Below, piece by piece: positions 5,735 through 38,010 of a DNA stretch of 64,000 nucleotides; position 1 is the stretch's first letter; every line of letters begins with the position of its first letter. The position numbers and the translations under genes were made by a program. The stretch comes from Parcubacteria group bacterium (GTDB lineage Bacteria; Patescibacteriota; Minisyncoccia; Phycocordibacterales; CSBR16-119), in the NCBI GenBank assembly GCA_943356745.1, contig CALRFT010000003.1:10853-74852 (forward strand). The letters run 5' to 3'. The notes under the pieces are model-generated. The model did no database searches. It saw only the letters and a program-made list of their open reading frames with translations, and was not told the origin of the DNA.

Positions 5735-6004
5735 TTACCATGAAGACTTACGAATTCCAGGAATCATCCCTTCGTTTGCAAGTTCACGAAACTTAATTCG
5801 AGACATTCCGAATGCTCGGAGATATCCTTTTGATCGACCTGTGAAAGCACATTGGTTCTTTCGGCGTGTTGGCGAAGAGTTTCGAGGCAGCTTTTGAAGC
5901 GCTTCGAGATCTCCGTCTGCCTTAAGCTGCGCTCGCTTTGTAGCGTACTTTTGGTACATTCGCTCTTTTTTGATATTTCGAGCGATAAGAGATTTTTTAG
6001 CCAT
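5735..6004 (-). CDS. rpsN: 30S ribosomal protein S14
   Basis: 89 aa, [56 protein letters not shown].. is clear S14. Confidence 0.9.
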
Positions 6005-6251
6005 GTGTGACTAGTATCTAGTAGATATCACGCTAAAACTATTGAAATTACAGCATTTTGCTGTAGTTTTAAGAGAATTTACGGATCTACACATTATTCT
6101 ATTAAATGTGCCTGAGTTCCCTCAGACAGACCTCATACTACTTCCTAAACCCTTATTTGTCAATGTTTTTCAGACTCAAGAAAAGCTGGCAAAAGCCAGC
6201 TTTTCTCACAGACCTAGGGTAGCGAATTGATCTGTTATTTTAATTATAACA

Positions 6252-6407
6252 CTAACAATCAGATCGAAAACTACAAATAACAGAAGCTGGGGATTGAGGT
6301 TCGTTACCCTGTCCCTCGAATGAATTTGCCACCATAACTCCAACAAGACCCATGAGGATTATGAGTGAAAATAGAAGAATAGTTTTTATAAAGTGACCAT
6401 TAAACAT
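6252..6407 (-). CDS. possible small hydrophobic peptide (51 aa) in a 440-nt intergenic region
   Basis: ATG at 6407, stop at 6252: MFNGHFIKTILLFSLIILMGLVGVMVANSFEGQGNEPQSPASVICSFRSDC. One predicted TM or signal segment. No homology recognised, and it is below the ORF-track cutoff. Confidence 0.25.
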   Translation of the reverse strand: MFNGHFIKTILLFSLIILMGLVGVMVANSFEGQGNEPQSPASVICSFRSDC

Positions 6408-6448
6408 GAGCCAATTATATCATACAGAAATAATTTTAATGATATACT

Positions 6449-7840
6449 TTGTGTATGAAATTGAGTCACAAGAAAAAAATTGCATACACTGGCGGAATTA
6501 TCGCAATTGCAACAATTTCTTTTTTTGTGGTTCACAATCTCAATTTTTCAAAAAGTACTGCAAAAATATACGAGAAGAAACTTCAAAAAACCGAACAATC
6601 TCTTGAAATATTTCAATCACAGGATTTTACACTCTCAAATCAAGATGGTTCCGTACAACACACCATCTCAAAAGAAAATCTTGGTCTTTTTGCAAGTGTC
6701 ATAGATGATCCAAAAACAGGATTTCCAACAATAGATATCTATGATCCCCTTCTTACAGAAGAACTTCAAAACTATAACCAAGAAATGCAGGATGCGTATT
6801 TTAAAATACATGAAGATAACTCTATAGAAATTATTCCTTCAAAACTTGGTGTTCGAGTTGATATTACAAATACAGAGCAATCCATCATTAAAAGTATTAA
6901 ATCGAAACAACACTCTACTGAAATTATATTTGAAAGTATCGAGCCAGATCTCACAACAAAAGAAGCGGAGGAGCTACAAATAAAACACCCTATTGTTTCA
7001 TTCACCACTTATTTCTCTTGTTGTGAAGCACGAGCAAAAAATATACAACAGGTTGCAAAGGTTGTTGATGGAGCACTTGTGTTCCCAGGACAAGAATTTA
7101 ATCTCAATACCCACATCGGAAAACGAACTGAGGACAGAGGCTTTCTTCCAGCAGGAACTATTGTAAAAGGAAGTATGATTGAAACAGTTGGTGGAGGAAT
7201 CAGTCAGTTTGCAACAACTTTTTACAACGCAGTATATTGGGGTGGATTCCAAGATATTAGTCACACACCACACAGTCGATATTTTTCTCGATATCCAGAA
7301 GGAATTGAAGCAACAATCTCATGGCCTGAGCCTCATCTTATTTTTAAAAATAACAGATCTCACGGAATCTTAATACAAACAAAAACCGGAGATACTTATG
7401 TGACTGTAACTTTTTTTGGAAACAATGATGGACGATATATTCAAGGAAAACACAAAGGTGGAGAAACAATAGTCACAACAATTTCAGAAGGTGGAGAGAA
7501 CGCACAAATAGTAGAATCTACCGTTGAAAACAAAACAGATATCTATCCACCAAAAGAGATTTACTATGTTGATGAAAATCTCGAAAAAAATGCAATCTAT
7601 CATAAAACACCGGGACGACACAGTTACTCGGTTGATATCATTCGAACAATCAAAAATAAAGCTGGAGACATTTTAGAATCAAGAAAATGGAAAACATTTT
7701 ATCTTTCAGAAGACAAAGAGTTTATGGTTCAATCTTGCGAGTTTGCACCAGAGCAAAGTATTTGTAAGACAAAGGAAGATGTAGAAAACGAAAAAAAATC
7801 TCTTGAGGAATTCTTTCAAGAATTAGAAAAAAATAGCTAA
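6449..7840 (+). CDS. VanW-family protein (membrane-anchored, cell-wall associated)
   Basis: N-terminal TM segment, then the VanW signature ..VFPGQEFNLN..GGGISQFATTFYNAVYWGG... The start may be the Met two codons downstream (6455). Confidence 0.75.
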   Translation: MCMKLSHKKKIAYTGGIIAIATISFFVVHNLNFSKSTAKIYEKKLQKTEQSLEIFQSQDFTLSNQDGSVQHTISKENLGLFASVIDDPKTGFPTIDIYDPLLTEELQNYNQEMQDAYFKIHEDNSIEIIPSKLGVRVDITNTEQSIIKSIKSKQHSTEIIFESIEPDLTTKEAEELQIKHPIVSFTTYFSCCEARAKNIQQVAKVVDGALVFPGQEFNLNTHIGKRTEDRGFLPAGTIVKGSMIETVGGGISQFATTFYNAVYWGGFQDISHTPHSRYFSRYPEGIEATISWPEPHLIFKNNRSHGILIQTKTGDTYVTVTFFGNNDGRYIQGKHKGGETIVTTISEGGENAQIVESTVENKTDIYPPKEIYYVDENLEKNAIYHKTPGRHSYSVDIIRTIKNKAGDILESRKWKTFYLSEDKEFMVQSCEFAPEQSICKTKEDVENEKKSLEEFFQELEKNS

Positions 7841-7841
7841 T

Positions 7842-7866
7842 AAAACACCTATTGCAGGGTGTTTTA
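7842..7866 (+). terminator. hairpin acacc-tattgc-ggtgt with T-run after the VanW gene, followed by an extended -10-like element (TGGTATACT)
   Basis: Seen directly in sequence; weak stem. Confidence 0.4.
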
Positions 7867-7868
7867 TT

Positions 7869-9221
7869 TTGACCTACTTAGTGGTATACTCTCGACAAGT
7901 TATGAAAAATATCGAAAGAATTTTTATCCTATTTTGGGGAGATATTGTCATACTATTCTCCTCTTTTTGGTTGACCCTTATTGTTGGTTTTTGGGGTGAT
8001 TTTAATCAAGAAATTATAGAATCTCACTCTGTTCCCTTTTTCTTTTTACATATAGGTTGGGTTATCATTCTCTTTCTTTTTAATCTTTATGAACTCAAGC
8101 TTTCAAAACCAAATATTTCAAATTTAAAAAATATTGGACAAGCACTTGTTTCTTGCTTTTTACTTGGAATAGTTTTTTTCTACCTTACACCTTTTTTTGA
8201 GATTACACCTAAGATAAATCTTGTTATAAATACCGTTACTTTCGGTGGACTCTTTTTCCTTTGGAGAAGAATGTTTTATCTATTATTTGCAAAAAATTTC
8301 AGGAAAAAAGCAATTCTTATAACCAGCGAGTCAAATCAAGTAAAAATTAATTTTATAAATTTCCTTGAAAATAATCCTCACACAGGAATTGAAATTGTAA
8401 ACTCATATACAGATGCTGAAGTATTCCTATCTCAAGAATACTCAAATATAGACATATTAATTGTTTCTGGAAATGTTCTTAAAAACCCACAAATATTTAA
8501 AGCTATCTTTAAAAGAAATATTGAAATATTAGAATTTACTCAAGCATATGAAAATCTTCTAGCAAAAATCCCAATCGATACTATCGATGAATCTTGGCTG
8601 ATCCACAAAATACCTGAAGAAAATATTCTCTATAAAACAATTAAAAGATGTGTTGATATTTTTATTTCCTCTCTTGCGTTGATTATTTTTTCTCCTTTTC
8701 TCATACTTGCAATAATATCAATCAAACTCCAAGATAGAGGACCGATCTTTATCAAACAAACACGGACCGGAAAACATAATATCCCATTTAAACTTCTCAA
8801 ATTACGCTCAATGGTTTCATTACACTCTGATGGTTCAGCAGAGTCAGGAGGAGTTCCGACCTGGGCAGAAAAAAATGACCCAAGAATCACCTCTGTTGGA
8901 AACATACTCAGAAAAACACACATTGATGAATTACCACAACTCATTAATGTACTTCGTGGAGATATTTCACTTGTGGGACCAAGACCGGAACGCCCAGAAT
9001 TTGTCGCAAAACTCGAGCAAGAAATTCCCTTCTATCACATGAGACATATCATCAAACCAGGCTTCACCGGCTGGGCTCAAATCAAGTTCAGATACGCGCG
9101 AAATGTTTTGGATAGTAAAGAGAAGTTTGAATATGATTTGTACTATATTAAAAATAGAAATATAATTCTTGATTTTGGTATTATTACCAAAACAATACAA
9201 ATTATTTTTACCCATCAATAA
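7869..9221 (+). CDS. undecaprenyl-phosphate hexose-1-phosphate transferase (WbaP/bacterial sugar transferase family), the initiating glycosyltransferase
   Basis: Four or five N-terminal TM helices, then the C-terminal bacterial sugar transferase domain: DIFISSLALIIFSPFLILAIISIKLQDRGPIFIKQTRTGKHNIPFKLLKLRSM ... DELPQLINVLRGDISLVGPRPERPEF. Confidence 0.85.
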   Translation: MTYLVVYSRQVMKNIERIFILFWGDIVILFSSFWLTLIVGFWGDFNQEIIESHSVPFFFLHIGWVIILFLFNLYELKLSKPNISNLKNIGQALVSCFLLGIVFFYLTPFFEITPKINLVINTVTFGGLFFLWRRMFYLLFAKNFRKKAILITSESNQVKINFINFLENNPHTGIEIVNSYTDAEVFLSQEYSNIDILIVSGNVLKNPQIFKAIFKRNIEILEFTQAYENLLAKIPIDTIDESWLIHKIPEENILYKTIKRCVDIFISSLALIIFSPFLILAIISIKLQDRGPIFIKQTRTGKHNIPFKLLKLRSMVSLHSDGSAESGGVPTWAEKNDPRITSVGNILRKTHIDELPQLINVLRGDISLVGPRPERPEFVAKLEQEIPFYHMRHIIKPGFTGWAQIKFRYARNVLDSKEKFEYDLYYIKNRNIILDFGIITKTIQIIFTHQ

Positions 9222-9224
9222 ACA

Positions 9225-10508
9225 ATGTTCAACCTATCGAAACTTTTTCCATCAAGTCTTCACCTTAAAAAAACCATTATTCAAAATATGTCATGGCTTT
9301 TTTTGGGCGAACTCACAGGAAGAATTATTAAAATACTTCTTGTAATCTACGCCGTACGTCTTCTTGGAACAAGTGAATGGGGCATGTTTTCCTACATTCT
9401 TTCTTTCGTTACAATCTTCATTAACTTAACCGATATTGGTCTTAATACAATCGTTGTAAAAGAACTTGTTTCAAAAGATCAAGAGAAATTCTCTTATTTT
9501 TCTACTGCTTTTTATATCAAAATTTGTTTATTACTACTTTCTGCTTTAGTAATATTTACCACAATTCCTTATGAGTCAATCGGAAATAACATTGCAATAG
9601 TCATATCACTATTTTTATTTTCTTTCTTTGAAACCGTGCGAGACTTCATCATGTCTCTCAGTCGTGCTGAAGAAAAAATGAAATACGAGGCGCTATTCAA
9701 AATACTCAGCAATATCATTGTTGGTCTTTTTGGGTTTTATTTTCTACACCTTGCAAGTACTGCACAAAATCTATCCCTTGCCTATGCTCTTGGTGCTTTC
9801 TTGAGTTTTATAATTTCTAGTCTATTTCTTTTCCGAAAAAATAAATATATTTTTTCTTCTTTTTCAAAAAAACTTGTAAGTCCCCTTTTAAATCTGACAT
9901 GGCCACTTGCCATCGTACTCATTACAACAACAGTTATTTTTAATACTGATATTTTGGTATTGCAAAAATATAAAACGCTGAGTGATGTTGGAACATACTC
10001 AGCGACCCAAAAACTTATATTTCTTTTCCATATCATTCCTCAAGTAATACTTGGAGCGATGCAACCCGCGATGACAAAACTTCGAAGTCATATGGAAGAA
10101 TTTAAATCTTTTTACAAAAAAGTTTTTATCATTCTTATGGGAAGTTCGATACTAATCAGTATTACAACAATCCTGTTCCCAAAATTCATTCTTTCTCTCT
10201 TTTATGGTGGAGATTTTGTTTCCGGATCAACAGCCCTCCAAATTCTTTCCCTTTCACTCATTCCTGTTTTTATAAACTACCTCAGTGTGTACACGATCAT
10301 TACATTCGATACCCAAAGAAAACTTCTTTGGGGGAACACAGTGCTTATCCTCACAAATATTATTCTCAATCTAGTCTTGGTAAGATTATATGGAATTATT
10401 GGAGCATCGCTCGCAACAACAATCTCTCTTAGTTTAGTTTGTTTATACAACACCTATCAAATGAAACGATTTATATTTTCTTATACAATTTCAGAAAAAA
10501 AGACTTAA
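9225..10508 (+). CDS. polysaccharide biosynthesis protein / Wzx-like oligosaccharide flippase
   Basis: 427 aa with about 12 TM helices, placed directly after the initiating transferase, as in Wzx-dependent pathways. Confidence 0.65.
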   Translation: MFNLSKLFPSSLHLKKTIIQNMSWLFLGELTGRIIKILLVIYAVRLLGTSEWGMFSYILSFVTIFINLTDIGLNTIVVKELVSKDQEKFSYFSTAFYIKICLLLLSALVIFTTIPYESIGNNIAIVISLFLFSFFETVRDFIMSLSRAEEKMKYEALFKILSNIIVGLFGFYFLHLASTAQNLSLAYALGAFLSFIISSLFLFRKNKYIFSSFSKKLVSPLLNLTWPLAIVLITTTVIFNTDILVLQKYKTLSDVGTYSATQKLIFLFHIIPQVILGAMQPAMTKLRSHMEEFKSFYKKVFIILMGSSILISITTILFPKFILSLFYGGDFVSGSTALQILSLSLIPVFINYLSVYTIITFDTQRKLLWGNTVLILTNIILNLVLVRLYGIIGASLATTISLSLVCLYNTYQMKRFIFSYTISEKKT

Positions 10509-11295
10509 TACCAAAAGGTAAAAATCTAAATAGTGTCATATAAAAAATATATTTACCAATAGAAAAAAGATACGCAGTGTAAAAACCTGGGTATTTTTTT
10601 CTGTGTCGAACAACAGAAGAAATATTATTTTTGAGTAAAATTTTTTTATTTTTAAAACTATTACTTCCAGTTCTGAGAGAATAACCTGTAGAAAAATCTT
10701 GAATATTTTTCATAAGCCCTGTCGTTCCCATTCTGAGAACAAAGTCATAATCTTCCATATCCTTCACATTCAAAGCTTCAGAATATCCTGAAATTTGCTG
10801 GGCGGTCTTTCTTCTGTACACGACACCTGAATGAGTAAAGTGATTAAACCGCAAAAAACTCTTTCGTATATCGACATCTTGCTCTGGTGGAATAATAGAG
10901 TACAAAAAGTTTTGCCCTTCATCAAAAACACGAACTGCAGTTCCAACAAGATTATAGTTACTATTTGCGTCCAGAAAAGAAACTTGTTTTTCTATTTTTT
11001 GAACATCGCTCCAAAAGTCATCATCATCAAGAACCGCAACATATGTGCCACGACAAAAACTAAGTGCTCTATTTCTTGTTTTTTGAATTCCAAGATTTTT
11101 ATCATTGTTGTATACAAAAATCCTTGAATCGGAAAAAGAAGAAATAATCTCAAGTACATTATCAGTAGATCCATCATTCACAATAACAAGCTCCCAATTT
11201 TGATAAGTCTGATTTAAAACACTTTCAATAGCTCTCTTGATTGTGAGAGAGCCGTTATATGTGCAGAGTATTATACTAACAAGATTAGATTCCAT
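10471..11295 (-). CDS. glycosyltransferase family 2
   Basis: N-terminal GT-A signature SIILCTYNGSLTIKRAIESVLNQTYQNWELVIVNDGSTDN and a DDDD motif (VAVLDDDDFW). Confidence 0.85.
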   Translation of the reverse strand: MESNLVSIILCTYNGSLTIKRAIESVLNQTYQNWELVIVNDGSTDNVLEIISSFSDSRIFVYNNDKNLGIQKTRNRALSFCRGTYVAVLDDDDFWSDVQKIEKQVSFLDANSNYNLVGTAVRVFDEGQNFLYSIIPPEQDVDIRKSFLRFNHFTHSGVVYRRKTAQQISGYSEALNVKDMEDYDFVLRMGTTGLMKNIQDFSTGYSLRTGSNSFKNKKILLKNNISSVVRHRKKYPGFYTAYLFSIGKYIFYMTLFRFLPFGIKSFFLKLYKKI

Positions 11296-12067
11296 GTTTA
11301 AAAAAATTTCTTATAGACCTTTGACATGATTTGGGAAATAAAAACAAAACTTTTGTTCGAATTGTTTTGAGAAAAAACACAAACTCTTCTTTCCAGGAAA
11401 AAACTTTTCTTGAATGCATATCTACATCTATTTTATTTTTTTTCAAACTTCGAAGAACAGATCGCCTCCATTTTCCTCGTATAACCGCATTGTGAACAGC
11501 AATTTCTTGTTTGTGTGTACTATAAAATCTTGGGAATATATCAGAACGATACGAACCATTGATTTCAAATTCCCAAGCTGATTCTTTCTCGTCTAAAAAT
11601 TCCTGCAAAAATCCCCTATTCCAAAGAGACAAAACTGTTGAAACTCGATACAAAGAACCAGGAATAAGTTCTCCCATATATTGATCAACAAAAACAGAAC
11701 CTTGCGGTTTTCCACTCACACCTAAAAAGTTAACTTGTTTTTCTAATGCATTTTGAAATACCTGTTCAATTCTTTCAGTATGAATTTTTTCTTTCAAAAG
11801 CAAATCATCAAGCCAAAGAAATACATATTGGTGTGGAAGAGATTCAAGTGCTTTTTTAAGATTTTTTGACCAACCCACATCTTCACCAACAAGAAGAGGT
11901 TTTGCCTTACTATACTTCGGATGAGTTGTATTTGAAAGATAATATATTTCAAATGGACAATCTTTCCAAAACAAATCAAAAGAAGACCAAAAAGGCTTTT
12001 GAAGATCTTTGTAGGAGTCACAGGAAACCACCAAAATACATATATTATTTGTGAGATTATTTTGCAT
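11285..12067 (-). CDS. hypothetical protein in the glycan locus, possible GT-A-like transferase
   Basis: No confident family. Contains ..VFLWLDDLLL.. (DXD-like). Start chosen at an internal Met (12067) to limit overlap with the upstream gene; the track ORF extends to 12178. Confidence 0.4.
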   Translation of the reverse strand: MQNNLTNNICILVVSCDSYKDLQKPFWSSFDLFWKDCPFEIYYLSNTTHPKYSKAKPLLVGEDVGWSKNLKKALESLPHQYVFLWLDDLLLKEKIHTERIEQVFQNALEKQVNFLGVSGKPQGSVFVDQYMGELIPGSLYRVSTVLSLWNRGFLQEFLDEKESAWEFEINGSYRSDIFPRFYSTHKQEIAVHNAVIRGKWRRSVLRSLKKNKIDVDMHSRKVFSWKEEFVFFLKTIRTKVLFLFPKSCQRSIRNFFKHGI

Positions 12068-12923
12068 ATATAGCTCGTGATTTCTTAAATACAAATTGAT
12101 CAACGCTTTCTCCAAACGCATTATATGGAAGCACGCAAATATATTCCTTATCAAAACAAGCGTGAACAGCAGCTCCACCAGACAAGACAGTAATAAAATG
12201 TTTTGAAGAATACATTATATCAACATAACGATACAAATCTTGTTTTGAAACATCCACATATTCCACACGAGTTTCTTTTGTTTGAAATTTTGAAACATAG
12301 TTCTGGAAAGTCTGCTGACTATATTCCCAACCAACTTTCTTACCAGAAATATAATTTGAATCCACTAAAATAGTCTCTTCGTATTCTGAAATTTTTTGAG
12401 GCGTGTAAAAAATCTCTGGAATTCCCTTTCCAATACCTTGAAGGCCAAATTGTTTCTCAACAATTTCAGTAATAGAATCGCATCCCTGTGTCACAAAAAT
12501 CTGTTTCCAAGTTTTATCTTTTGAAAAAATACGAAAAACCAAACCATCTTCTTCAACGAAACCTTTAAAGTAAGGATTTTTCAAAAATAATAATTCTGCT
12601 ATATCTTTATTTGAAAGTTTTTCATAAGATTTTTTTGTAATGTAAAAATCAGCACCATACTTTTCATGAAGAAGTCTTGGAAGTGAGGTAAACACAGTCC
12701 AATCACCCAAACCTTTATATGGTATATCTAAAACAATTTTTTTTCTTGCTATAGCTTTTTGGATACTCTGTGAATAAGTTTTATATGAAAATCTATCAAA
12801 CAAAAGATTCCATATATTTTTTACAAAATACAGACCAAAAAACAAAAAACTTCCAAGTAATCCGAGTTTACGCATAATTGAAAAAGTTTTTTGTTTCAAG
12901 TAATTTTTATACATACAATTCAA
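12057..12923 (-). CDS. hypothetical protein, possible GT9-like (heptosyltransferase-fold) glycosyltransferase
   Basis: N-terminal TM; KKIVLDIPYKGLGDWTVFTSLPRLLHEKYG resembles the GT9 N-terminal GD motif. Weak. Confidence 0.4.
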   Translation of the reverse strand: MNCMYKNYLKQKTFSIMRKLGLLGSFLFFGLYFVKNIWNLLFDRFSYKTYSQSIQKAIARKKIVLDIPYKGLGDWTVFTSLPRLLHEKYGADFYITKKSYEKLSNKDIAELLFLKNPYFKGFVEEDGLVFRIFSKDKTWKQIFVTQGCDSITEIVEKQFGLQGIGKGIPEIFYTPQKISEYEETILVDSNYISGKKVGWEYSQQTFQNYVSKFQTKETRVEYVDVSKQDLYRYVDIMYSSKHFITVLSGGAAVHACFDKEYICVLPYNAFGESVDQFVFKKSRAIYAK

Positions 12924-13783
12924 AATGGAAGAAAACTAATAACAAAAAGTGTCATAATTTTACATCTATCAAACATTGGTGGCTTGCTTTGCATTGCTTT
13001 TTGAAAAGCGTGCCGAGCACTTTTTTTCTTACCCTTTTGAAGTAATATAAAACCAAGTGATTTCCATAAAAAGAAACCAACCTTATGTTTTTCATACATT
13101 GGATACACCCTTTCTTTGAAAATGAGGAATTCCTCAACACTTTGATTTTTACTTATGTTTGATCCGTGAATCGAATATACCAAAAGAGGTTCCGAAATAT
13201 ATCCAAATACTCCATTATCAAAACAGCGAACAATAAAATCAACGTCTTCCCAGTGATTTATTGTTTCAGAAAAAAAACCAATTTTTGACCTCACAAAATC
13301 AAGTCGAGTAAATATATTCATCCCACTAAATGTTGAACCAATACGAGTAAGGAAAAATGACACTGGTTTTTTTGTTGAAAATCTAAAGCTTTTTTTTGTT
13401 TTCGTATGCCCAGATTCAATCCAAATATCAGAACTACAAAAATCAATATCCTTATTTCGATTCATATATTCAACAAATTTTGAAATACGCCAGTGGACAA
13501 ATTTATCATCAGAATCAAGAAAGGTAACAAAAAAACCACTTGCCTTTTCAAGTCCTGTATTTCTTGCCTTTCCTATTCCACCATTTACTTGTTTGATATA
13601 CACAACTCGAGAGTCTCTTTCGATGTATTCAGAAACAATTTCTTCTGTATTATCTGTTGAACCATCATCAACAACAATAATTTCAAAATTATCATAATCT
13701 CCGTGAATAATACTTTCAATTGCCCGAGCAATATATCCTGCTCGGTTATAGGTTGGTATGATAATTGAAACTTTTTGATCCAT
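12920..13783 (-). CDS. glycosyltransferase family 2
   Basis: VSIIIPTYNRAGYIARAIESIIHGDYDNFEIIVVDDGSTDN and LDSDD motif. Confidence 0.85.
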   Translation of the reverse strand: MDQKVSIIIPTYNRAGYIARAIESIIHGDYDNFEIIVVDDGSTDNTEEIVSEYIERDSRVVYIKQVNGGIGKARNTGLEKASGFFVTFLDSDDKFVHWRISKFVEYMNRNKDIDFCSSDIWIESGHTKTKKSFRFSTKKPVSFFLTRIGSTFSGMNIFTRLDFVRSKIGFFSETINHWEDVDFIVRCFDNGVFGYISEPLLVYSIHGSNISKNQSVEEFLIFKERVYPMYEKHKVGFFLWKSLGFILLQKGKKKSARHAFQKAMQSKPPMFDRCKIMTLFVISFLPF

Positions 13784-14706
13784 TACTTTTTAAAAATAAA
13801 ATTATCAAATGCCGTATCAAGAATTCGAGACAGATCACCTTCGACAAGTTCAAGTTCTCCCTCGTGTGTAATTGCATATGACTTGTAGCCAAACGATCTT
13901 AGTTTTTCAACCGCTTGCATTGAAGCATCGCCACCATTATCAAATCGACACACTTCAAGAGAGATAAGAATATTATTATTTCTAAAAATATCTTCTCCAC
14001 CTTCAAGAACAAATACTTCTGCGCCCTCAACATCCATTTTCATACATGTTGGAATTGCATGTGACTGACAATACTCTGATAAAGTAATCATGGAAATAGT
14101 AATACTTCTTTTATATGAACCATTAACAACATCAGTTCTTTCGTCTGCGAACTTTTTGTTGATAGTACTTACCCCAGAAGAGTCAGACAAAAAGAGTTCT
14201 CCTTCTCCTGACTGATTTGAAACTGCAACCTGAGATACTGTTACATGTGTATTCAAAGCTGTATTATTTTTTACCACATCACAGACTTCTTTAATTGGTT
14301 CAAATGAATGAACTTCTCGACAAATATCAGATGTAAGATAGGTATAAAATCCATAGTTTGCACCAAGATCATAAAACACATCATCCGATCCAAGATGTTT
14401 GATGAAAAATTTACTTAATTTATATTCAGCGGGACTGTAGATAAGGGCACCAAACACATAGAGAATAATAATATCTTGATCTATAATATCAGCCTTGATT
14501 TTCCTTCCCCAAAACAAAGAAAACTCTCGATTCTCTTTTTTAAGAAAACCACAACGCCACAGCAAATATAGTCCATAAAATCTTACCGAGAAAAGAAGTC
14601 TTACAAACTTCCACAAAAAACCTTGCTTGGTAGCAAAATGATTGAAATAGAACGCATGTTTATACGCTTGTTCAAGTTGTTGTAATGTAGTTTCTTTGTG
14701 GAGCAT
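13783..14706 (-). CDS. FkbM-family SAM-dependent methyltransferase
   Basis: ..FYDLGANYGFYT.. glycine-rich SAM motif. The domain organisation is typical of FkbM methyltransferases found in glycan clusters. Confidence 0.65.
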   Translation of the reverse strand: MLHKETTLQQLEQAYKHAFYFNHFATKQGFLWKFVRLLFSVRFYGLYLLWRCGFLKKENREFSLFWGRKIKADIIDQDIIILYVFGALIYSPAEYKLSKFFIKHLGSDDVFYDLGANYGFYTYLTSDICREVHSFEPIKEVCDVVKNNTALNTHVTVSQVAVSNQSGEGELFLSDSSGVSTINKKFADERTDVVNGSYKRSITISMITLSEYCQSHAIPTCMKMDVEGAEVFVLEGGEDIFRNNNILISLEVCRFDNGGDASMQAVEKLRSFGYKSYAITHEGELELVEGDLSRILDTAFDNFIFKK

Positions 14707-14727
14707 ACTATAAATTTATATTATTTG

Positions 14728-16800
14728 TTAATAACTATATTCTGGAATAAAGGTCTTTATTTTTTTGTTTACCTCATTAATCACACTCATATTTTTTGAC
14801 TGAACTGCCGTATACATCAAAAGATCTGCGTAGTTTTTGTTATATGAACCCATGTCATACAAAACATGAGCATACTCAAGCGCCTTGTTGTAATCTTTTG
14901 CGAGAATCTGTGTTTCAATCATCACCTCATATCCCAATGCAGAAAACGGAGCATTTTCAATTGTTCTCGCGCTAAACTTCTCTGCCTCTTTAAGGTATCT
15001 ATCTTTATTTTCAGATTGAATAGAAGAAAGTAATCCAGCAATACGTGCACTCACTAAACTAAAACGAAGATCAAAAGGATAGGTGTCGGACATAGAACTT
15101 GCATAACCAAACAAAACCTCTAGTTCTTTTTCTCCATACAGCTTTACTTCTTCATCAAAACTCTGCCAATACTGTCTGTACCCATCAATAATAATATCCA
15201 GAAACTGAGCTTCTGACCGGAGAGTACCGACAGGAGAAGTATTAAAAGCCTTTTCAAACAGAGCGGGTCTTTGATCAAGGGAAGCATCTGTTAATACTCG
15301 TATTTGTTTTGATTCTGCTCGGACTCGCATTGCAAAGAAATACATAGCAAACATAACAACAACAAACATAAGGATAGTGAGACCAAATCTTACATATTCA
15401 TTCAAATTATATTTTTGCTTGATTGTACTACCTCCAAAAAGAAATACTGAAATAAGTCCAAGAAGTACAAAATATGCTTGAATACTTGAAATAGTATCAA
15501 AGGCAAAAAATAGTTGGAATTGATACGATACAAGAAGTCCTACAAGAAAAGATGCTGTGAGTATGTCTTTTCGATCTTGAGTGTTTTGAGCAAAGCGAAC
15601 CAAAGAAACCAAAACAAAACCAAGCACCGAAAGATACAAAACAAGACCTGGAACACCAGAAGAAACCAATGTTTCTAACATTGCATTGTGAGGTTTGTCT
15701 GTCCACGGCTCGTTTGGATATGGTGGATTGAGTAAAATAGGATCAAGATTTTGATTGTGAACAAAAGAATAATTCTCCAAACCGTATCCGAGCAAAGGTT
15801 TTTCCATAGCACCATTCCATGCCATTTCCCAATACACCACCCGAGCACCATCTCCGCTCCAAACAAGATATTCTTGTATTTTTGAATCAGGAGAAAAATA
15901 GTCAAAAGCAGAAAATACTACTCCACAAGCAAACAATCCGAGGAGTATATAGCCAAAAAATTTCTGTATTTTTTTCTGTGATGCAGACAAAAATAGAGAT
16001 ACTGCAACAAAAAGTCCAAGCACAACCGAAACAAAACCAGCCCGAGCTTCACCCAAGAAGGTATCGATACTTGTCACCTGCAAGGTAAATACTTTTTGAA
16101 TTTCAATAAAAATAGGATTGAGAAGAAGAATCAAAGCAAGTACAGCCCAGATAATTTTTCTCTTTGTTTGTTGCTCTCTCACAAAAAGAATCAAAGAAGC
16201 GAAGAAAGAAAAAACTAAAAACAAAGCGGCGTACGAAGTGTTACCAAATGTTCCTGCATTACTTGATTGCCGTAAAAACTCAATATCAAGATTCAAAAAA
16301 ACAGGCGAAGCAAAAACTGTAAGAGTTGCAAGAGCTCCCCCAAAGACAAATGCTTTAAGCAGCTGCCAAATAGTTTCTTTTGAATACACCAGAATCGTGC
16401 TGACAAAAAGAACAAAAGAGAACAAGTAGGTTACAAAACCACTGTGTCTTCCGAAGTTTGACCAAAACGATGACTCAAAATGTATCCCTGTGACACTGGT
16501 TGCCAAAAGCCACACAAGAAAAACAGAAACAATGCCGAGAAGGATTTTTGTTTGTTTTGAAAGAGTTCTTTTTTGAGAAACCACAAGTGGAACCAAAAAC
16601 CCACAAGCGATAGACCCCAATACAGCCAAAAAGGTGTATTTGATGGTTGAAAAGTAATAATAATCTTTGAGAGAAAAAAGAAGTGGACTCAAAAAGATAC
16701 TAATAAAGATGATTATTTTAAGAGCGCTGACTTGCGAATTATCGCCTTTTTGTATACCAAACATGGAAAAATTATACCCCAAAAAACAAAAAACCGCCAC
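14728..16800 (-). CDS. O-antigen ligase / Wzy_C-domain polytopic membrane protein with a C-terminal soluble helical (TPR-like) domain; candidate O-oligosaccharyltransferase or polymerase
   Basis: About 12 TM helices and the Wzy_C hallmark ..KPHNAMLETLVSSGVPGLVLYL.. (H-N-x-x-L-E...G-x-x-G). The C-terminal ~200 aa are soluble and helical. Confidence 0.7.
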   Translation of the reverse strand: MAVFCFLGYNFSMFGIQKGDNSQVSALKIIIFISIFLSPLLFSLKDYYYFSTIKYTFLAVLGSIACGFLVPLVVSQKRTLSKQTKILLGIVSVFLVWLLATSVTGIHFESSFWSNFGRHSGFVTYLFSFVLFVSTILVYSKETIWQLLKAFVFGGALATLTVFASPVFLNLDIEFLRQSSNAGTFGNTSYAALFLVFSFFASLILFVREQQTKRKIIWAVLALILLLNPIFIEIQKVFTLQVTSIDTFLGEARAGFVSVVLGLFVAVSLFLSASQKKIQKFFGYILLGLFACGVVFSAFDYFSPDSKIQEYLVWSGDGARVVYWEMAWNGAMEKPLLGYGLENYSFVHNQNLDPILLNPPYPNEPWTDKPHNAMLETLVSSGVPGLVLYLSVLGFVLVSLVRFAQNTQDRKDILTASFLVGLLVSYQFQLFFAFDTISSIQAYFVLLGLISVFLFGGSTIKQKYNLNEYVRFGLTILMFVVVMFAMYFFAMRVRAESKQIRVLTDASLDQRPALFEKAFNTSPVGTLRSEAQFLDIIIDGYRQYWQSFDEEVKLYGEKELEVLFGYASSMSDTYPFDLRFSLVSARIAGLLSSIQSENKDRYLKEAEKFSARTIENAPFSALGYEVMIETQILAKDYNKALEYAHVLYDMGSYNKNYADLLMYTAVQSKNMSVINEVNKKIKTFIPEYSY

Positions 16801-16857
16801 GAGGGCGGTTTATTGTTTTTCTTAGTTTTCACTAAGTATTCCTTGGTTATTCTAAGA

Positions 16858-18807
16858 TTAGAATAGGTTTAGGAATAGTGGATCTGTTTTGAAGTCAACA
16901 AGGTTGAATGAATATACTTCATCATCCCCTCCTGCTGCATAATCCCATCCAATAGCTTCAAGAACTACTTGAGCAAATGCGTCAGCTGATGCTGTTGCGT
17001 TTACTGTCAATGTGATAGTTTCTGAAGTTCCTTCTTCAATCAAGAATGCATTTCCGTCAACTGTATCACCTGTTGATGTAGTTACACAAGTTGTTGAGTT
17101 TGAACCATTGTTTGTGATTGAGTATGAAGTTGCTGTTGAAACTTCTGATCCATCGTTATCTTCAACACAAGTGTTGTCTACCCAGATGTCTCCATCAAAA
17201 GCAGTAACCTTGTACTTAATAACGAATTGAGCTTGGTCTCCTGTTCCTGAAGTATCTGAAGTTACAGTTTTCACTTCTGTTGCTGAAACCAATTCTAGAT
17301 CAAATCCTACTTCGTATGCAGCGTGTGCATCTCCCACAGCAGAACCTGTAAGGTCTCCACTTGCAAGTGAGTCACCAGCTTCATCTTCTGCATCAATATC
17401 AGCAACTGTAAGTGTTGCTTGTACAGTGTCTCCATCATCAAGAGCTCCATCTGTATCAGCAAGTTCTACTTCTAGAACGAATTCCACTTCTTCTCCTGCG
17501 TCAATTGTGATGTCAAGATCATCGAAAGTAACTACTCCGTCATTTGGAACGTTTTCTGTTGCGATTTCTTCACCATCCATCCATAGGTTTGCTTCAAGAA
17601 CGATTACTGATGGATCTGTTTCTCCAGTTGTTGTAATTTCAAATGGGATAGCTTCGATAGTAACGTCTGAATCTCCTCGTGCTTCAAGAGTGAATGAAAG
17701 AATTTCGTGCTTTGTATCGTCTGTATCATCTACATTCAATACTCGTGCATCGTTAATGTCTTCATTTTCAAGTGCTGCTCGAAGTTCAACATCTGTTGCT
17801 CCAGCAAAGTCTTCAAAACTGAAAAGCTTTTCTAGATCATCATCTGCTGCACCGTCAGCAACATCAAGAGTGTAGTTTTCTGTTGTAACTACTCCATCTC
17901 CATCCATAAATCGGATTGAAGAAACTCCTACGTTGAATTGATCAGTGTCGATATCTCCTGAGTCAAGATTGTTAAGTGCTGAAACAGCAATTACCAATTC
18001 CATTTCATCACCTGCTTCGATGATAACTCCTTCAAGAGAAATGTTTCGTGAGTAAACATCTGATGATTCGTTAAAGTCATCAGCATCAACTGATCCAACT
18101 TTTTCTCCGTCAAACCATACAGATACTTCATCTGCGTAGTCTTCTAGTTTTTCTGAGTCAGCTGAAGTGTTTTGTGAGAATTCAACTTTGATTGAAGTGA
18201 TTTCCACATCTGATTCGTCATCAGCTTCGATGTCGAATGCAAGAACTGGAACATCTTCTTCTCCTTCTCCTACTTCTTCGTTAGAGTAAGATGAAGAAAG
18301 GTCAACTGTAATATCTCCAGCTCCTCCGTTAAGAGTTCCTGTTGATGTTGATCCTCCGTTGTTGTTTGTTCCACAGTTTGTTCCAGCCATCATTGAAGCG
18401 TTAACAATTGCTCCTTGTGTAGCTGGTCCAGCAATTCCGTCTGCTGAAAGTCCCTTTGAAGTTTGGAAAGCTTTCACTGCAGCTGATGTAGCTGGTCCGT
18501 ATGAACCATCAACATCAACTGTAAGTGATGCTCCTCCGTACATGTTAAGTGCTGTTTGTAGTGCAGATACTGCTGATCCACTCATTCCTGGTCGGAGAGT
18601 TGATGTAGCTGTGTATCCGTAAGTTGTTCCACAAGTTGTAGATCCTGTTGAAGATCCTCCTTGCATTTGTGCAATTTGAGCTGTAAGAGCAGCAATTTGA
18701 GCCATCAAACTTTCAATAGTTGGAGTTTGAGCTTTAGCTGATCCTGCAATTCCAAATGCTGCTGCTGCAAGCACAAGTGCTGCAACTGATTTTTTGAAAA
18801 TTGTCAT
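16858..18807 (-). CDS. secreted acidic surface protein with an N-terminal peptidoglycan-binding (PG_binding_1) domain; S-layer-like or cell-wall-associated protein
   Basis: Signal peptide MTIFKKSVAALVLAAAAFGIAGSAKA. Then a PG_binding_1-like segment (LRPGMSGSAVSALQTALNMYGG..DGSYGPATSAAVKAFQ..LSADGIAGPATQGAI). The remaining ~480 aa are D/E/T/S/G-rich beta-repeat sequence. Confidence 0.7.
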   Translation of the reverse strand: MTIFKKSVAALVLAAAAFGIAGSAKAQTPTIESLMAQIAALTAQIAQMQGGSSTGSTTCGTTYGYTATSTLRPGMSGSAVSALQTALNMYGGASLTVDVDGSYGPATSAAVKAFQTSKGLSADGIAGPATQGAIVNASMMAGTNCGTNNNGGSTSTGTLNGGAGDITVDLSSSYSNEEVGEGEEDVPVLAFDIEADDESDVEITSIKVEFSQNTSADSEKLEDYADEVSVWFDGEKVGSVDADDFNESSDVYSRNISLEGVIIEAGDEMELVIAVSALNNLDSGDIDTDQFNVGVSSIRFMDGDGVVTTENYTLDVADGAADDDLEKLFSFEDFAGATDVELRAALENEDINDARVLNVDDTDDTKHEILSFTLEARGDSDVTIEAIPFEITTTGETDPSVIVLEANLWMDGEEIATENVPNDGVVTFDDLDITIDAGEEVEFVLEVELADTDGALDDGDTVQATLTVADIDAEDEAGDSLASGDLTGSAVGDAHAAYEVGFDLELVSATEVKTVTSDTSGTGDQAQFVIKYKVTAFDGDIWVDNTCVEDNDGSEVSTATSYSITNNGSNSTTCVTTSTGDTVDGNAFLIEEGTSETITLTVNATASADAFAQVVLEAIGWDYAAGGDDEVYSFNLVDFKTDPLFLNLF

Positions 18808-19347
18808 AATAAAATTTTTGTAATTAGCTAATTAAAAAAGCTTATAATTTTTTTTGCGTTTCCGCATGGTCCACTTTTTCTGTGTCTTTATCACACATAC
18901 TTTGGTAAACCGGCTTTTTGATCTCTTTTCTTTTGCAAGAAAAGTTTTGTATTTGTTCGAAAACAAACACGATTGTGTGAATGATACCTCTACCATTCAC
19001 TACAAACAATTTTTGTTGTTTGTATCTACCTTGTCGACACGGCGGATACCGATCGACGAAAAAACACAAGTTAAGAGTAGGGCGTTTAAATTCCCCACAA
19101 GATCGCTATGTTGTTTTCAACGACCGTTCCACTTGTTGGACGAAAATACGGTGAGATTGATAAATATACCAAAAACAACGCACACTTTCGTCGCTTTCAT
19201 ATAGTATCACAAGGCCTCAATAAAGGCTATATAAAATACTGTGAAAAACGACGCAACTGTTGAAAGGTTGGGTAACCCTTCATTTTCGTCATAAATAAAG
19301 ACGAAACAGCTTAAGCAATATTACATAAAAAATATAACATAACAAAA

Positions 19348-19382
19348 AAGATACTGTGTCAAACATGACCAGTATCTTTTTT
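19348..19382 (-). terminator. terminator hairpin aaaaaagatactg...cagtatctttttt downstream of the 19384..20199 gene
   Basis: Perfect 9-bp stem flanked by A-run and T-run. Confidence 0.6.
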
Positions 19383-19383
19383 G

Positions 19384-20199
19384 TTATGAAGCTATAGAGT
19401 ATCGACTCCAACGCTTCTCCCCTGTCTTTGAAAGTTTTCCTGTTTCAACAAGCTTAATCAGCATTCTTTGGATTGTTTTTTCACTTAATTCTGGAAACTC
19501 AAGTGAGACATCCCCCGCAGAAACCTCACCCTTTGTTTGAATAATTGAAATGATTTTTTCAAGTCTTTGATTGTTTGATTCCTGTCCTTTTTGAATGTCT
19601 TTTTGAAAGACTTCATCTGTCTTTTTGATTGTGTCTTTTTGGACAAATGGAACTGTGTTTTTTTCTGGTGCAGTTTTTTGAACTGGCTTTGGAGTAGGTT
19701 TGTTTTGAGTAATCGATTCCGGGAGAACAAACTCATGAATCGCCTTGTTATGGAAAGAAGAAGCAAGAAGAGATTGTGAATTAATCAAACCATATTTTTG
19801 ATTCAAGTCATCTCGAACAAATACAAGATATTCAGAGATAACCTTAAAGTTCATATCGGACACGAAACCAACAGACACACAAACTTTAAGGACATTAAGT
19901 ATTCTGTCGATGTAGTTTTGGGCTTCTGTTATTGTTTTCTTTGCCTGACTTGGAGATTCAATAGCAATTGAACCAACCAGAGCACTCAGTGAAACCGCGA
20001 GATTCCGAACATCTTTTCGAAGTGGATCTTCTTCGTCAATCAAGTCAGAAACAAGATACAAAGCTGTTACTATTTTTTGGGTTTTTGACTCAACCTCAAG
20101 CATTGTGTCTTTGAGTCCTCCATAAGTCTTTGAGAAATTATATGAGTTATTTGTGTCCATAAGTAGGTTTAGTATATCGGTCACAAGACGGTCTTGCAA
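19384..20199 (-). CDS. hypothetical protein with a C-terminal winged-helix-like DNA-binding segment
   Basis: 271 aa with a helical N-terminal half. The C-terminus ..GEVSAGDVSLEFPELSEKTIQRMLIKLVETGKLSKTGEKRWSRYSIAS resembles a wHTH. Divergently oriented to ftsK. Confidence 0.4.
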   Translation of the reverse strand: MQDRLVTDILNLLMDTNNSYNFSKTYGGLKDTMLEVESKTQKIVTALYLVSDLIDEEDPLRKDVRNLAVSLSALVGSIAIESPSQAKKTITEAQNYIDRILNVLKVCVSVGFVSDMNFKVISEYLVFVRDDLNQKYGLINSQSLLASSFHNKAIHEFVLPESITQNKPTPKPVQKTAPEKNTVPFVQKDTIKKTDEVFQKDIQKGQESNNQRLEKIISIIQTKGEVSAGDVSLEFPELSEKTIQRMLIKLVETGKLSKTGEKRWSRYSIAS

Positions 20200-33712: not shown

Positions 33713-34300
33713 TTAGAGATGACTTTCACGAAGAGACTGTTTAATTCTTTCCAAAAGCTCATATTTTTTTTGACTTGTTCTATCTAAGGTTTCTCTTGTA
33801 AAGGCTGAATTATGTAAACTGTATGATTCTTTAAACTCTTCCCAATATCCAAGACGATGGAGAATCTTGATTGTTACCAAAATCTCAATCGCCTCTATTG
33901 TCTCACTATCAAAGGTTTTTGAAATTTTAAGACAAGCTTCATAGATATCAGAAAAAAGACTTTCTTGAGATTCTTCTCCAACATACAACCTTCGAAGCAA
34001 ATTCGCGATTCTTGAGATAGATTCCTGTGCCTTTTTTGAAAAACCGGCAAAGGTTACTTGTTCTCCATCAAACGGTAATGCGTTGGTAATTCTCCAAACA
34101 TCCTTTCCTCGCACAAACTCGATAACTGAAAAAGAGTACTGTTGGAGGAAGGGATTGAGTTTTGATGTAGTAGAACGAACCCCTTGAGCGCTTGCATGTA
34201 TGAGTCCAAAGTCCTGTGTCACAATCCAAAAAAACCGGTTTTTTTCACCTGTATCCATTGCGTCAATAATGAAACCTGGGTTTTGATGGATTGTATACAT
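33713..34300 (-). CDS. recO: DNA repair protein RecO (short form)
   Basis: N-terminal OB-fold pattern (GFIIDAMDTGEKNRFFWIVTQDFGLIHASAQGVRSTTSKL..PF..) resembles RecO. 195 aa and apparently lacking the zinc-binding tail. Confidence 0.55.
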   Translation of the reverse strand: MYTIHQNPGFIIDAMDTGEKNRFFWIVTQDFGLIHASAQGVRSTTSKLNPFLQQYSFSVIEFVRGKDVWRITNALPFDGEQVTFAGFSKKAQESISRIANLLRRLYVGEESQESLFSDIYEACLKISKTFDSETIEAIEILVTIKILHRLGYWEEFKESYSLHNSAFTRETLDRTSQKKYELLERIKQSLRESHL

Positions 34301-37764: not shown

Positions 37765-37789
37765 GATATGTATAAAAGCTAATAAATTG

Positions 37790-38010
37790 ATAAATAAAAA
37801 AACTCGCCCACAGAAATAAGTACAAAGACTTATTTCCAAGGGCGAGTTTTCTGTTTCCCGCGGTACCACCTTGTTTGATGCGGGAAAATGGCTTTGCCAT
37901 TTTCCCGCATCCTCATTACAGCTATTTCGGGCTTACCCGCCAAGTTCTACTTCCTTTAAAGGTTTCTTCTTGAAGCTCTGGAGTGATTAGTTCCTTCAAC
38001 GCTTGTAATT
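37790..38010 (-). promoter_or_regulatory. T-box riboswitch leader of ileS (boundaries approximate)
   Basis: The minus-strand RNA contains the conserved T-box core ..AAGGUGGUACCGCGGGAAAC.. (plus 37857..37870). It is followed directly by an intrinsic terminator (gggcgag...ctcgccc plus U-run, about 37797..37850) that ends about 30 nt before the ileS ATG. The 5' part contains an AGAG motif and candidate Ile specifier triplets. Confidence 0.8.

Follow-up and report, generated by a model that had tools for sequence, protein, structure and literature searches.

A surface-glycan locus in a Parcubacteria group genome as a candidate protein O-glycosylation system paired with an acidic envelope protein

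The locus analysed here lies in a window of 64,000 nucleotides (the whole stretch of DNA that was studied, 64 kb) from a Parcubacteria group bacterium, a member of the Patescibacteria. It comprises a cassette of surface-glycan genes, the gene of a polytopic membrane protein of the Wzy_C family with a tetratricopeptide repeat (TPR) array (Wzy_C-TPR, or Wzy_C for short), and the neighbouring gene of an acidic secreted protein, here named Surf. The described systems closest to it are the S-layer glycosylation (slg) loci of Paenibacillus alvei and Geobacillus stearothermophilus (WsfP/WsaP, WsfB/WsaB), the oligosaccharyltransferases (OTases) PglL of Neisseria, PglL/TfpO of Acinetobacter and PilO of Pseudomonas, the O-antigen ligase WaaL, and the S-layer glycan cluster of Tannerella forsythia (Bacteroidetes). 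The pglL, pilO or tfpO genes typically adjoin their target gene (21 of 31; PMC3643930), and the S-layer O-OTase WsfB of P. alvei and PglL have a C-terminal TPR region, while WsaB has a TPR partner, WsaA (PMC2943079). By this comparison, and by the analyses presented below, we give about an even chance to the reading that the locus is a Wzx-dependent protein O-glycosylation system in which Surf is the preferred acceptor of the Wzy_C-TPR transferase.

The locus resembles the slg loci in the monoderm-type envelope of the host, a WbaP-type initiating enzyme and a glycan methyltransferase activity, and in the combination of Wzy_C with TPR, as in WsfB or the WsaA/WsaB pair; this last likeness is one of description and not of WsfB/WsaB sequences. 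In P. alvei it is the OTase gene that is transcribed alone (PMC2943079), whereas here the separate unit is the target gene, Surf. Export by the ABC system Wzm/Wzt, as in G. stearothermophilus, is replaced here by a Wzx flippase; the rml and gal nucleotide-sugar genes found in slg clusters have no counterpart in the locus; and the putative target has a PG_binding_1 anchor, three Ig-like beta-sandwiches and no recognisable S-layer fold. An earlier interpretation of this DNA (the sequence-only reading) had seen slg logic in the gene set. The WbaP-like enzyme and the Wzy_C protein with TPR agree with this, while export and sugar supply differ from those of G. stearothermophilus. Its description of the system as self-contained did not hold, as no nucleotide-sugar synthesis gene was found in the locus by the Pfam scan, the sole other sugar gene of the window being an NAD-epimerase gene (48464-49381).

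With PglL, TfpO and PilO the locus shares a Wzy_C core with the Arg, Pro-x-x-Gly-x-Gly and His-Asn residues, an extra C-terminal extracytoplasmic region, a position beside the presumed target gene, and a Wzx-flipped undecaprenyl-diphosphate-linked oligosaccharide donor made by a separate variable cassette, with apparent donor promiscuity; the host, however, is not diderm and the neighbour is not a pilin. In T. forsythia, likewise, a strain-variable set of wzx, glycosyltransferase (GT) and methyltransferase genes, which make up a proven S-layer O-glycan cluster, builds the glycan of an abundant surface (S-layer) glycoprotein, but the cluster as listed includes no Wzy_C-type transferase, the host is diderm and the glycan is a decasaccharide with nonulosonic acids (PMC6120980). 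The parts of the present locus are not what is new about it, being standard; the addition is an acceptor, a transferase and a cassette that form an exchangeable block in reduced genomes. No account of a locus of this kind in the Patescibacteria, or candidate phyla radiation, came up in literature searches, and the present one is a plausible addition to the PglL/WsfB-type protein O-glycosylation systems.

An exact look-up of the window's Surf protein matched no record, and genomic context was drawn from homologues. Related loci in other genomes, numbered L001 to L035, were used for comparison with the window. A Surf-seeded scan of species-representative genomes yielded 23 loci, of which 18 were informative, and a metagenome scan yielded four. 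The genes that follow the transferase gene or genes differed greatly among them: the window shared its GT2/FkbM cassette with L001 and L002; L003 and L005 carried GT4, rhamnose-pathway and Epimerase_2 genes, and L008, L012 and L014 had GT4 or epimerase genes; no recognisable glycan gene came after the Surf-Wzy_C pair in L013 and L020. In L003, L004, L005 and L034, Surf was followed by two or three Wzy_C-TPR genes and then by wholly different glycan genes (GT4, rhamnose, epimerase), and the short contig of L035 carried Surf, Wzy_C and Wzy_C, ending within the second Wzy_C gene. Because the genes after the transferases vary or are missing, the conserved unit is Surf plus Wzy_C-TPR, not Wzy_C-TPR plus cassette.

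The Wzy_C-TPR tree was composed of three clades. Clade A holds the paralog found directly beside Surf in most genomes, clade B includes the protein of the window, and clade C is akin to Wzy_C-TPR proteins that occur broadly in other phyla. Surf is typically followed by A and then B, with C added at times; of these clades the window lineage retains B only. Surf was upstream in every clade-B context with enough flanking sequence, and the order, orientation and spacing (58-118 bp) of Surf and Wzy_C were kept across clades A and B at Surf identities of 34-54%. The tandem paralogs, two or three in number, stand right after Surf in L003 (7948-12043), L005 (8085-14154), L033, L034 and L035. The three clades are about 20% identical to one another, and all keep the invariant Arg/His residues.

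Nucleotide identity between the window and L001 was 86-90% over a block of about 10.1 kb and 67-76% in its flanks (blastn). Synonymous divergence (dS) from L001 was 0.23-0.54 for the genes from Wzx through Surf, as against 1.6 for the conserved hypothetical gene hyp271, 1.85 for RecA, 2.8 for FtsK and saturation for the initiating transferase (PGT). The block begins just ahead of the PGT catalytic domain (breakpoint at about 8541) and holds the catalytic half of PGT, Wzx, four GT or GT-like genes, FkbM, Wzy_C and nearly all of Surf. FtsK and hyp271 were nearer to L002 than to L001, whereas the block was nearer to L001. Given these incongruent phylogenies of flanks and block, and the low dS inside it, the exchange between lineages took in Surf, Wzy_C and the cassette as a single unit. 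In the comparison with L002, dS was low (0.5-0.8) in Wzx, GT2a, the orphan 260-amino-acid (aa) protein and the GT9-like protein only, and at background in Wzy_C (1.5) and Surf (1.2); part of the cassette, from Wzx to the GT9-like gene, has thus also passed between the window and L002 lineages on its own, with neither Wzy_C nor Surf. The cassette proteins were 80-87% identical to those of L002, except GT2b (71%), and Wzy_C only about 48%, so that nearly the same cassette works with a diverged Wzy_C; the Wzy_C proteins of L003 and L005, with their unrelated cassettes, were 39-44% identical to that of the window.

Gene order was identical in three conspecific contigs (about 98% nucleotide identity). 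Between conspecifics, Surf and Wzy_C formed the most diverged 1-kb bins, with identities of 97.0-97.8% as compared with 98.1-99.5% in the neighbouring bins (8-25 kb). The ratio of nonsynonymous to synonymous divergence (dN/dS) was highest in Surf (0.33-0.38), the value for Wzy_C (0.18) being inside the range of the cassette genes. A dN/dS of 0.97 for the L002 Surf was discarded, as that gene is split in the assembly.

These identity and dS patterns decouple Wzy_C from the cassette, contrary to what a co-inherited polymerase would show, and they bear on the rival that survives best, which we nevertheless consider unlikely: a Wzx/Wzy-dependent surface polysaccharide (capsule, exopolysaccharide or secondary wall polymer), for which Wzy_C-TPR would be the repeat-unit polymerase, enzymes with genes outside the locus would release the polymer or link it to the wall, and Surf would be a mere neighbour or a non-covalent binder. 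PGT, Wzx, GTs and exactly one polytopic protein of the Wzy superfamily are indeed the canonical minimal set for such a polymer, and Wzy_C heads the operon in which it and the GT genes tightly overlap. The Pfam family Wzy_C also matches some polymerases, a WaaL entry of the PDB is titled 'polymerase/ligase', and the two or three tandem paralogs of relatives could pair a polymerase with a ligase. Glycan loci beside S-layer genes can, moreover, encode an anchoring wall polymer, as for PSII and the CWB2 proteins of C. difficile (PMC4973711). However, a wzy gene as a rule moves together with its cassette and differs extremely from one glycan type to another (PMC12004945), whereas this Wzy_C is pinned to Surf, with the identities given above across unrelated cassettes and across the same cassette, and stands without an adjacent cassette in L013 and L020. 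Its invariant His-Asn with two Arg is the WaaL/PglL signature, and it has one large outer loop, in contrast to the two of the S. flexneri Wzy (PL3 and PL5, with an RX15G motif in each; PMC12004945). Neither the 64-kb window nor any related locus examined yielded a gene for a Wzz/PCP protein, an LCP ligase, a second Wzy-like protein or a tyrosine kinase. The PG_binding_1 domain that anchors Surf binds peptidoglycan rather than a secondary polymer. Pinned to Surf across different cassettes, Wzy_C seems to accept more than one donor, and the pattern is less like that of a repeat-unit polymerase than like that of a donor-promiscuous transferase coupled to its acceptor.

The Wzy_C (PF04932) match of the transferase covered residues 244-390 of the 690-aa open reading frame (ORF) at 63.6 bits, the gathering cut-off being 31.7. 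That length, taken from the sequence-only reading, had to be revised along with the gene start: GTG 16800 falls within the terminator hairpin of the upstream gene Surf, and a TATAAT box ends 6 nt upstream of ATG 16764 (direct reading); therefore, the protein starts at this ATG and has 678 aa. The extra C-terminal helical domain pointed out in the same reading was confirmed, and is the TPR array. An alignment of 33 homologues was used to build an AlphaFold2 (AF2) model, with a predicted local distance difference test score (pLDDT) of 89.7. A single-sequence search of the PDB with the membrane domain gave no match, and a profile of the N-terminal domain alone was needed because the full-length profile was swamped by TPR matches. 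This profile matched two PDB sequences only: WaaL (7tpg, E 5.3e-8) and 9rmk_A, titled 'Oligosaccharyltransferase' (E 1.3e-4), which was identified by its residue numbering as the PglL of N. meningitidis.

In the model, the protein has a WaaL/PglL-type core of 12 transmembrane (TM) helices with one large extracytoplasmic loop after TM9, and a 13th helix at residues 456-493. The positive-inside rule is obeyed, the short inner loops being rich in Lys/Arg; every invariant residue is on the outer loops, and the TPR domain (499-672) is extracytoplasmic. R308, P323, G326, G328, H359 and N360 are invariant in the Wzy_C-TPR family, and the first five align with R298, P313, G316, G318 and H349 of PglL, residues named as functional or conserved (PMC3643930), and with their WaaL equivalents. 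At R241 the Arg is shared by all of clade B and by at least 90% of the 33 homologues, so that the conserved Arg, Arg and His of the wider family (R215/R288/H338 in E. coli WaaL; R224/R298/H349 in PglL) are present as R241, R308 and H359. Model and alignment thus give the protein a WaaL/PglL-type fold and its active-site residues. The P-x-x-G-x-G sequence was also considered as a PglL-specific motif (PMC3643930) and rejected, as the aligned WaaL 7TPG carries the same motif.

By fold as well as by profile, the closest solved structure was not PglL but a true O-antigen ligase, the WaaL of Cupriavidus metallidurans (PDB 7TPG/7TPJ), a protein of about 400 aa that is about 13% identical to Wzy_C-TPR and has neither the 13th helix nor the TPR. 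This result lends some weight to a reading that we regard as quite improbable, in which the enzyme would be a WaaL-like ligase to a non-protein acceptor, either a membrane glycolipid (lipoglycan or an anchor like lipoteichoic acid) or peptidoglycan, with the TPR contacting the wall. The Patescibacterium is of monoderm type and is not known to have lipopolysaccharide, and lipid A-core, the acceptor of WaaL, is not expected in Patescibacteria, so that a WaaL homologue would need another acceptor; a link with the wall is suggested by the VanW/PG_binding_4 protein of the locus and by the PG_binding_1 domain of Surf. On the other hand, ligation of glycans to peptidoglycan is the work of LCP proteins in Gram-positive bacteria, and no characterised Wzy_C-family enzyme is known to perform it. 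Such a ligase would also leave unexplained both the pinning of Wzy_C to Surf in genomes whose adjacent cassettes differ or are lacking and the joint exchange and joint fastest divergence of the two genes. The characterised Wzy_C enzymes of monoderms, WsaB and WsfB, are protein O-OTases (PMC2943079).

Surf, the candidate acceptor, proved to be the acidic secreted neighbour of 649 aa that had been noticed earlier: its pI is 4.05, Asp and Glu make up 19% of its residues and Ser and Thr (S/T) another 19%, and it has a signal peptide. In its AF2 model (pLDDT 81.9), a helix and two disordered linkers accompany the PG_binding_1 domain, and the rest of the chain forms three acidic beta-sandwiches (Table 1), which resemble integrin calf/thigh, alpha-2-macroglobulin and Gram-positive adhesin Ig-like domains (Foldseek). 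Classification of Surf as an S-layer protein on fold grounds was rejected, as these Foldseek matches are to generic Ig-like stalk domains only. Given that no lipobox and no sortase motif were found in Surf, the protein is presumably anchored via PG_binding_1. The family is large (more than 505 homologous clusters), all its named members and all titled genomic loci are from Patescibacteria, and the homologues are annotated as hypothetical or with generic PG-binding names.

The disordered linkers on either side of PG_binding_1 are plausible glycosylation sites in the model. The S/T content of the second linker was at least 19% in all 11 loci with an adjacent Wzy_C, whereas in five of the 12 loci without one it was 15% or less, with poly-Asp/Glu in its place; the association is weak (Fisher p 0.037, phylogeny uncorrected). 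Across homologues, the stretch after PG_binding_1 (residues 136-165, window 18313-18402) is a hypervariable low-complexity sequence. It reads (GGST)n in many genomes, consists of repeated C-x4-G-x-S-x2-T-G-x2-C knots in L003, L005, L006, L008 and L035, and is poly-Asp/Glu in L011 and L022, with a shorter Asp run in L009.

Surf has a transcription terminator of its own. An equivalent hairpin was found in 12 of the 13 other loci that were folded (the exception being L002), whether or not a Wzy_C gene comes downstream, and its pattern, an A-tract, an AACC(A/G)CCC...GGG(T/C)GGTT hairpin and a T-tract, is near-identical across species-level divergence. A strong terminator in so many loci indicates that Surf is a monocistronic unit. 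Between the hyp271 terminator and the Surf start codon there is a non-coding leader of about 530 bp (window 18808-19383), which matched no Rfam family; a 116-aa ORF on its opposite strand (18854-19204) is probably spurious. Judging by its own terminator and this long leader, Surf is probably highly expressed. The six tightly packed minus-strand genes headed by Wzy_C (Wzy_C, FkbM, GT2b, GT9-like, orphan-260 and GT2a), whose borders mostly overlap, converge on the plus-strand run VanW-PGT-Wzx. The TATAAT box may be the promoter of the Wzy_C-to-GT2a operon; a generic promoter scan gave 50 matches where chance alone predicts 49, and its output was left aside.

Several results weigh against the proposed protein glycosylation with Surf as the putative acceptor. 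A Wzy_C-TPR gene was present within 10 kb downstream of Surf in just six of the 18 informative Surf-seeded loci and directly adjoined Surf in four (same strand, gap 82-117 bp), counts that are not phylogenetically independent; such clusters were expected often to sit beside their structural target gene, and the Surf-Wzy_C pair is kept in many loci but not in most of these 18. Because unrelated genes occupy the place downstream of Surf in the other loci (DsbD/thioredoxin, a pilus ATPase, Pif1 helicase, multicopper oxidase), the adjacency could come in part from a shared variable hotspot and inherited synteny. The window has clade B only, though clade A is the one that adjoins Surf in most other genomes, and the two or three tandem paralogs elsewhere leave room for one of them to be a polymerase. 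Surf is terminated on its own and is not co-transcribed with Wzy_C, its S/T linkers are short, and it shows no S-layer-specific fold. As for the enzyme, the earlier proposal of a PglL-type O-OTase is supported by the fold, the residues and the outward TPR, and is weakened by the N-terminal profile, which scores WaaL above PglL (35 vs 24 bits), and by motifs that are shared with WaaL and cannot separate an O-OTase from a ligase. PglL_A (PF15864), reported to separate PglL from WaaL (PMC3643930), had no match at E<=0.01 in the Pfam scan. The fold comparison took in WaaL and PglL and no solved Wzy polymerase.

Least probable of the three rivals is a general O-OTase whose main substrates would be other secreted proteins (type IV pilins, envelope proteins), with Surf a minor substrate or none and the adjacency mere inherited synteny in a variable hotspot: the best-studied enzymes PglL, PilO and TfpO modify pilins and Neisseria PglL is a general system (PMC3643930), 12 of the 18 Surf-seeded loci have no nearby Wzy_C, and the right flank of Surf is a hotspot with pilus genes (L007), an RHS toxin (L018), DsbD and helicase, yet the order, orientation and spacing of Surf and Wzy_C are kept despite the divergence of Surf, the two genes were exchanged together, linker composition tracks the presence of Wzy_C, and no pilin gene was recognised beside the enzyme in any locus.

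If the locus does glycosylate Surf, we infer the following sequence of steps. PGT would prime polyprenyl phosphate with hexose-1-phosphate at the cytoplasmic face, where both GT2 enzymes and the GT9-like protein, perhaps together with the orphan 260-aa protein, would build a short oligosaccharide of up to about five sugars, to be O-methylated by the FkbM methyltransferase. Wzx would flip the lipid-linked oligosaccharide to the outer face, and there secreted proteins would receive the whole glycan en bloc on Ser/Thr (or Tyr) hydroxyls through the Arg/His site of Wzy_C-TPR, the extracytoplasmic TPR domain recruiting the acceptor. The preferred acceptor would be the abundant, separately transcribed, peptidoglycan-bound, acidic Surf, and the likeliest sites its disordered S/T linkers flanking PG_binding_1.

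A wider proposal, about which we are doubtful, is that Surf is the principal, functionally S-layer-like envelope glycoprotein of Paceibacteria-class Patescibacteria, that Surf, Wzy_C-TPR and the cassette form a mobile 'serotype module' swapped between species by homologous recombination, and that the tandem paralogs (one to three, of clades A, B and C) are specialised by acceptor site or by donor glycan. Such a module would amount to O-antigen or capsule switching on a protein scaffold, and would shape host attachment and phage evasion of episymbionts. The Patescibacteria are ultra-small, mostly uncultivated and thought to be host-attached, and their surface cover is largely obscure. Were the glycosylation reading true, a family of more than 505 clusters now called hypothetical or generic PG-binding would become a candidate major surface glycoprotein, the Wzy_C-TPR proteins common in Patescibacteria genomes would gain a concrete, testable role, and the block exchange would be evidence of surface-antigen switching in reduced genomes; the locus would also be a defined set (one transferase, one acceptor and one small cassette) that is testable without cultivation.

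All ten ORFs of the locus were present at the coordinates given previously, and the reported gene set (VanW, Bac_transf, Wzx, two GT2, FkbM and Wzy_C) was confirmed by Pfam, with matches for Wzy_C, Bac_transf, Polysacc_synt, Glycos_transf_2 and Methyltransf_21 (Table 1). The locus has a G+C content of 0.31-0.32, compared with 0.37-0.40 in its flanks; its left neighbour is the ribosomal-protein/SecY/Adk/Map operon, and on the other side are hyp271, FtsK and RecA. Gene calls on the conspecific contigs give lengths of 678 aa for Wzy_C, 285 for the GT9-like protein, 260 for the orphan protein and 439 for PGT, the last in agreement with the likely PGT start at 7902 (439 aa).

Table 1. Position and supporting evidence of the features of the locus (window coordinates, or residue numbers for parts of Surf)
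Feature	Position	Strand	Evidence
VanW/PG_binding_4 protein, 463 aa	6449..7840	+	Pfam VanW 1.9e-38, PG_binding_4 6.6e-7
Initiating polyprenyl-phosphate hexose-1-phosphate transferase, large WbaP/WcaJ type (PGT)	7869..9221	+	Pfam Bac_transf 1.4e-61
Wzx-type flippase for lipid-linked oligosaccharide	9225..10508	+	Pfam Polysacc_synt 1.7e-27, Polysacc_synt_3 1.1e-12
GT2a glycosyltransferase, final gene of the minus-strand operon	10471..11295	-	Pfam Glycos_transf_2 1.6e-35
Orphan 260-aa protein	11285..12067	-	Overlaps both adjoining genes
GT9-like single-domain protein, 285-288 aa	12057..12923	-	Remote Glyco_transf_9 likeness
GT2b glycosyltransferase, weak C-terminal TPR_2 match	12920..13783	-	Pfam Glycos_transf_2 6.5e-38
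FkbM-family methyltransferase	13783..14706	-	Pfam Methyltransf_21 1.8e-15
Wzy_C-TPR protein, 678 aa, candidate O-oligosaccharyltransferase	14728..16764	-	Pfam Wzy_C 2.3e-17
TATAAT -10-like box	16771..16776	-	Direct sequence reading, consensus match
Intrinsic terminator after the Surf stop codon	16791..16811	-	8-bp GC-rich stem, A-tract and T-tract
Surf, 649 aa, candidate glycan acceptor	16858..18807	-	Pfam PG_binding_1 2e-15
Recombination block, about 10.1 kb, common with the L001 lineage	8541..18648		blastn identity and dS
Surf signal peptide	residues 1-27		
Surf helix	residues 31-49		AF2 model
Surf disordered S/T linker	residues 50-63		pLDDT <50
Surf PG_binding_1 domain	residues 78-140		
Surf disordered S/T/N/G linker	residues 142-156		pLDDT <50
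Surf three acidic beta-sandwich domains	residues 160-649		AF2 model

Among the cassette proteins, PGT passed the NCBIfam model TIGR03025 for EPS polyprenyl glycosylphosphotransferases (313.9 bits, curated cut-off 295.55), and the FkbM protein, which probably O-methylates the glycan, passed TIGR01444 (77.2 bits, cut-off 37.7). The best NCBIfam match of GT2a was EpsE-like and under the cut-off. Two further proteins had been described as GT-like but unassigned. One of them proved to be remotely GT9-like: Glyco_transf_9 was matched by three of 48 members of its family (best E 7.6e-5), which has an invariant GGLGD motif. Fusions to GT2, FkbM, RmlD or HAD domains are frequent among the 233 representatives of this family. 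The orphan 260-aa protein could not be so placed, having no Pfam match even at E<=5, no NCBIfam class and no PDB profile match. Its family comprises 15 homologous clusters, all free of Pfam domains; SCD-Y-D and W-DD are its invariant motifs, and the protein may be a glycosyltransferase.

A 522-aa protein of L001 (13847-15415) and L002 joins an FkbM methyltransferase to the GT9-like domain, which forms its C-terminal half; the protein of the window is 93% identical to residues 240-522 of the L001 protein. The fused N-terminal FkbM half is absent from the window and from the conspecific contigs, where about 700 bp have been cleanly deleted between GT2b and the kept domain, and its loss suggests a difference between lineages in glycan methylation. 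The VanW protein, encoded by the first gene of the plus-strand run and considered as a possible part of the functional module, falls beyond the limits of the recombination block and has diverged as much as the genomic background: it is just 53-59% identical to the L001 and L002 copies and is missing the N-terminal ~200 aa of those 600-aa versions. Upstream of its gene there is an ORF-free stretch of 445 bp (6004-6449).

The order RecA-GlucB166-FtsK-hyp271-Surf was near-universal in the Surf-seeded loci. The gene hyp271 (19384-20199, minus strand) stands between FtsK and Surf in almost every locus and encodes a cytoplasmic protein of 271 aa that diverges fast (46% identity to the L001 copy) and at its C terminus weakly matches winged-helix domains of DeoR/FeoC-like type (E ~0.004-0.008); it may regulate Surf. 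In L018, an insertion (12069-18636) separates Surf from Wzy_C. It carries the gene of an RHS-repeat toxin of 2018 aa, which ends in a CdiA-CT RNase A domain, and downstream of this gene a 168-aa ORF that possibly encodes an immunity protein.

Elsewhere in the window, an Rfam search detected three tRNAs and nothing else. An Mrr_cat restriction-endonuclease-like gene (47625-48467, minus strand) lies beside the NAD-dependent sugar epimerase gene, and a second large secreted-looking protein, of 629 aa and with a DUF11 repeat, is encoded at 31802-33691 (minus strand). An isoleucyl-tRNA-synthetase-like protein of 1189 aa (34300-37869, minus strand) has a histidine phosphatase domain (His_Phos_1) inserted at residues 538-710, within its tRNA-synt_1 catalytic domain.

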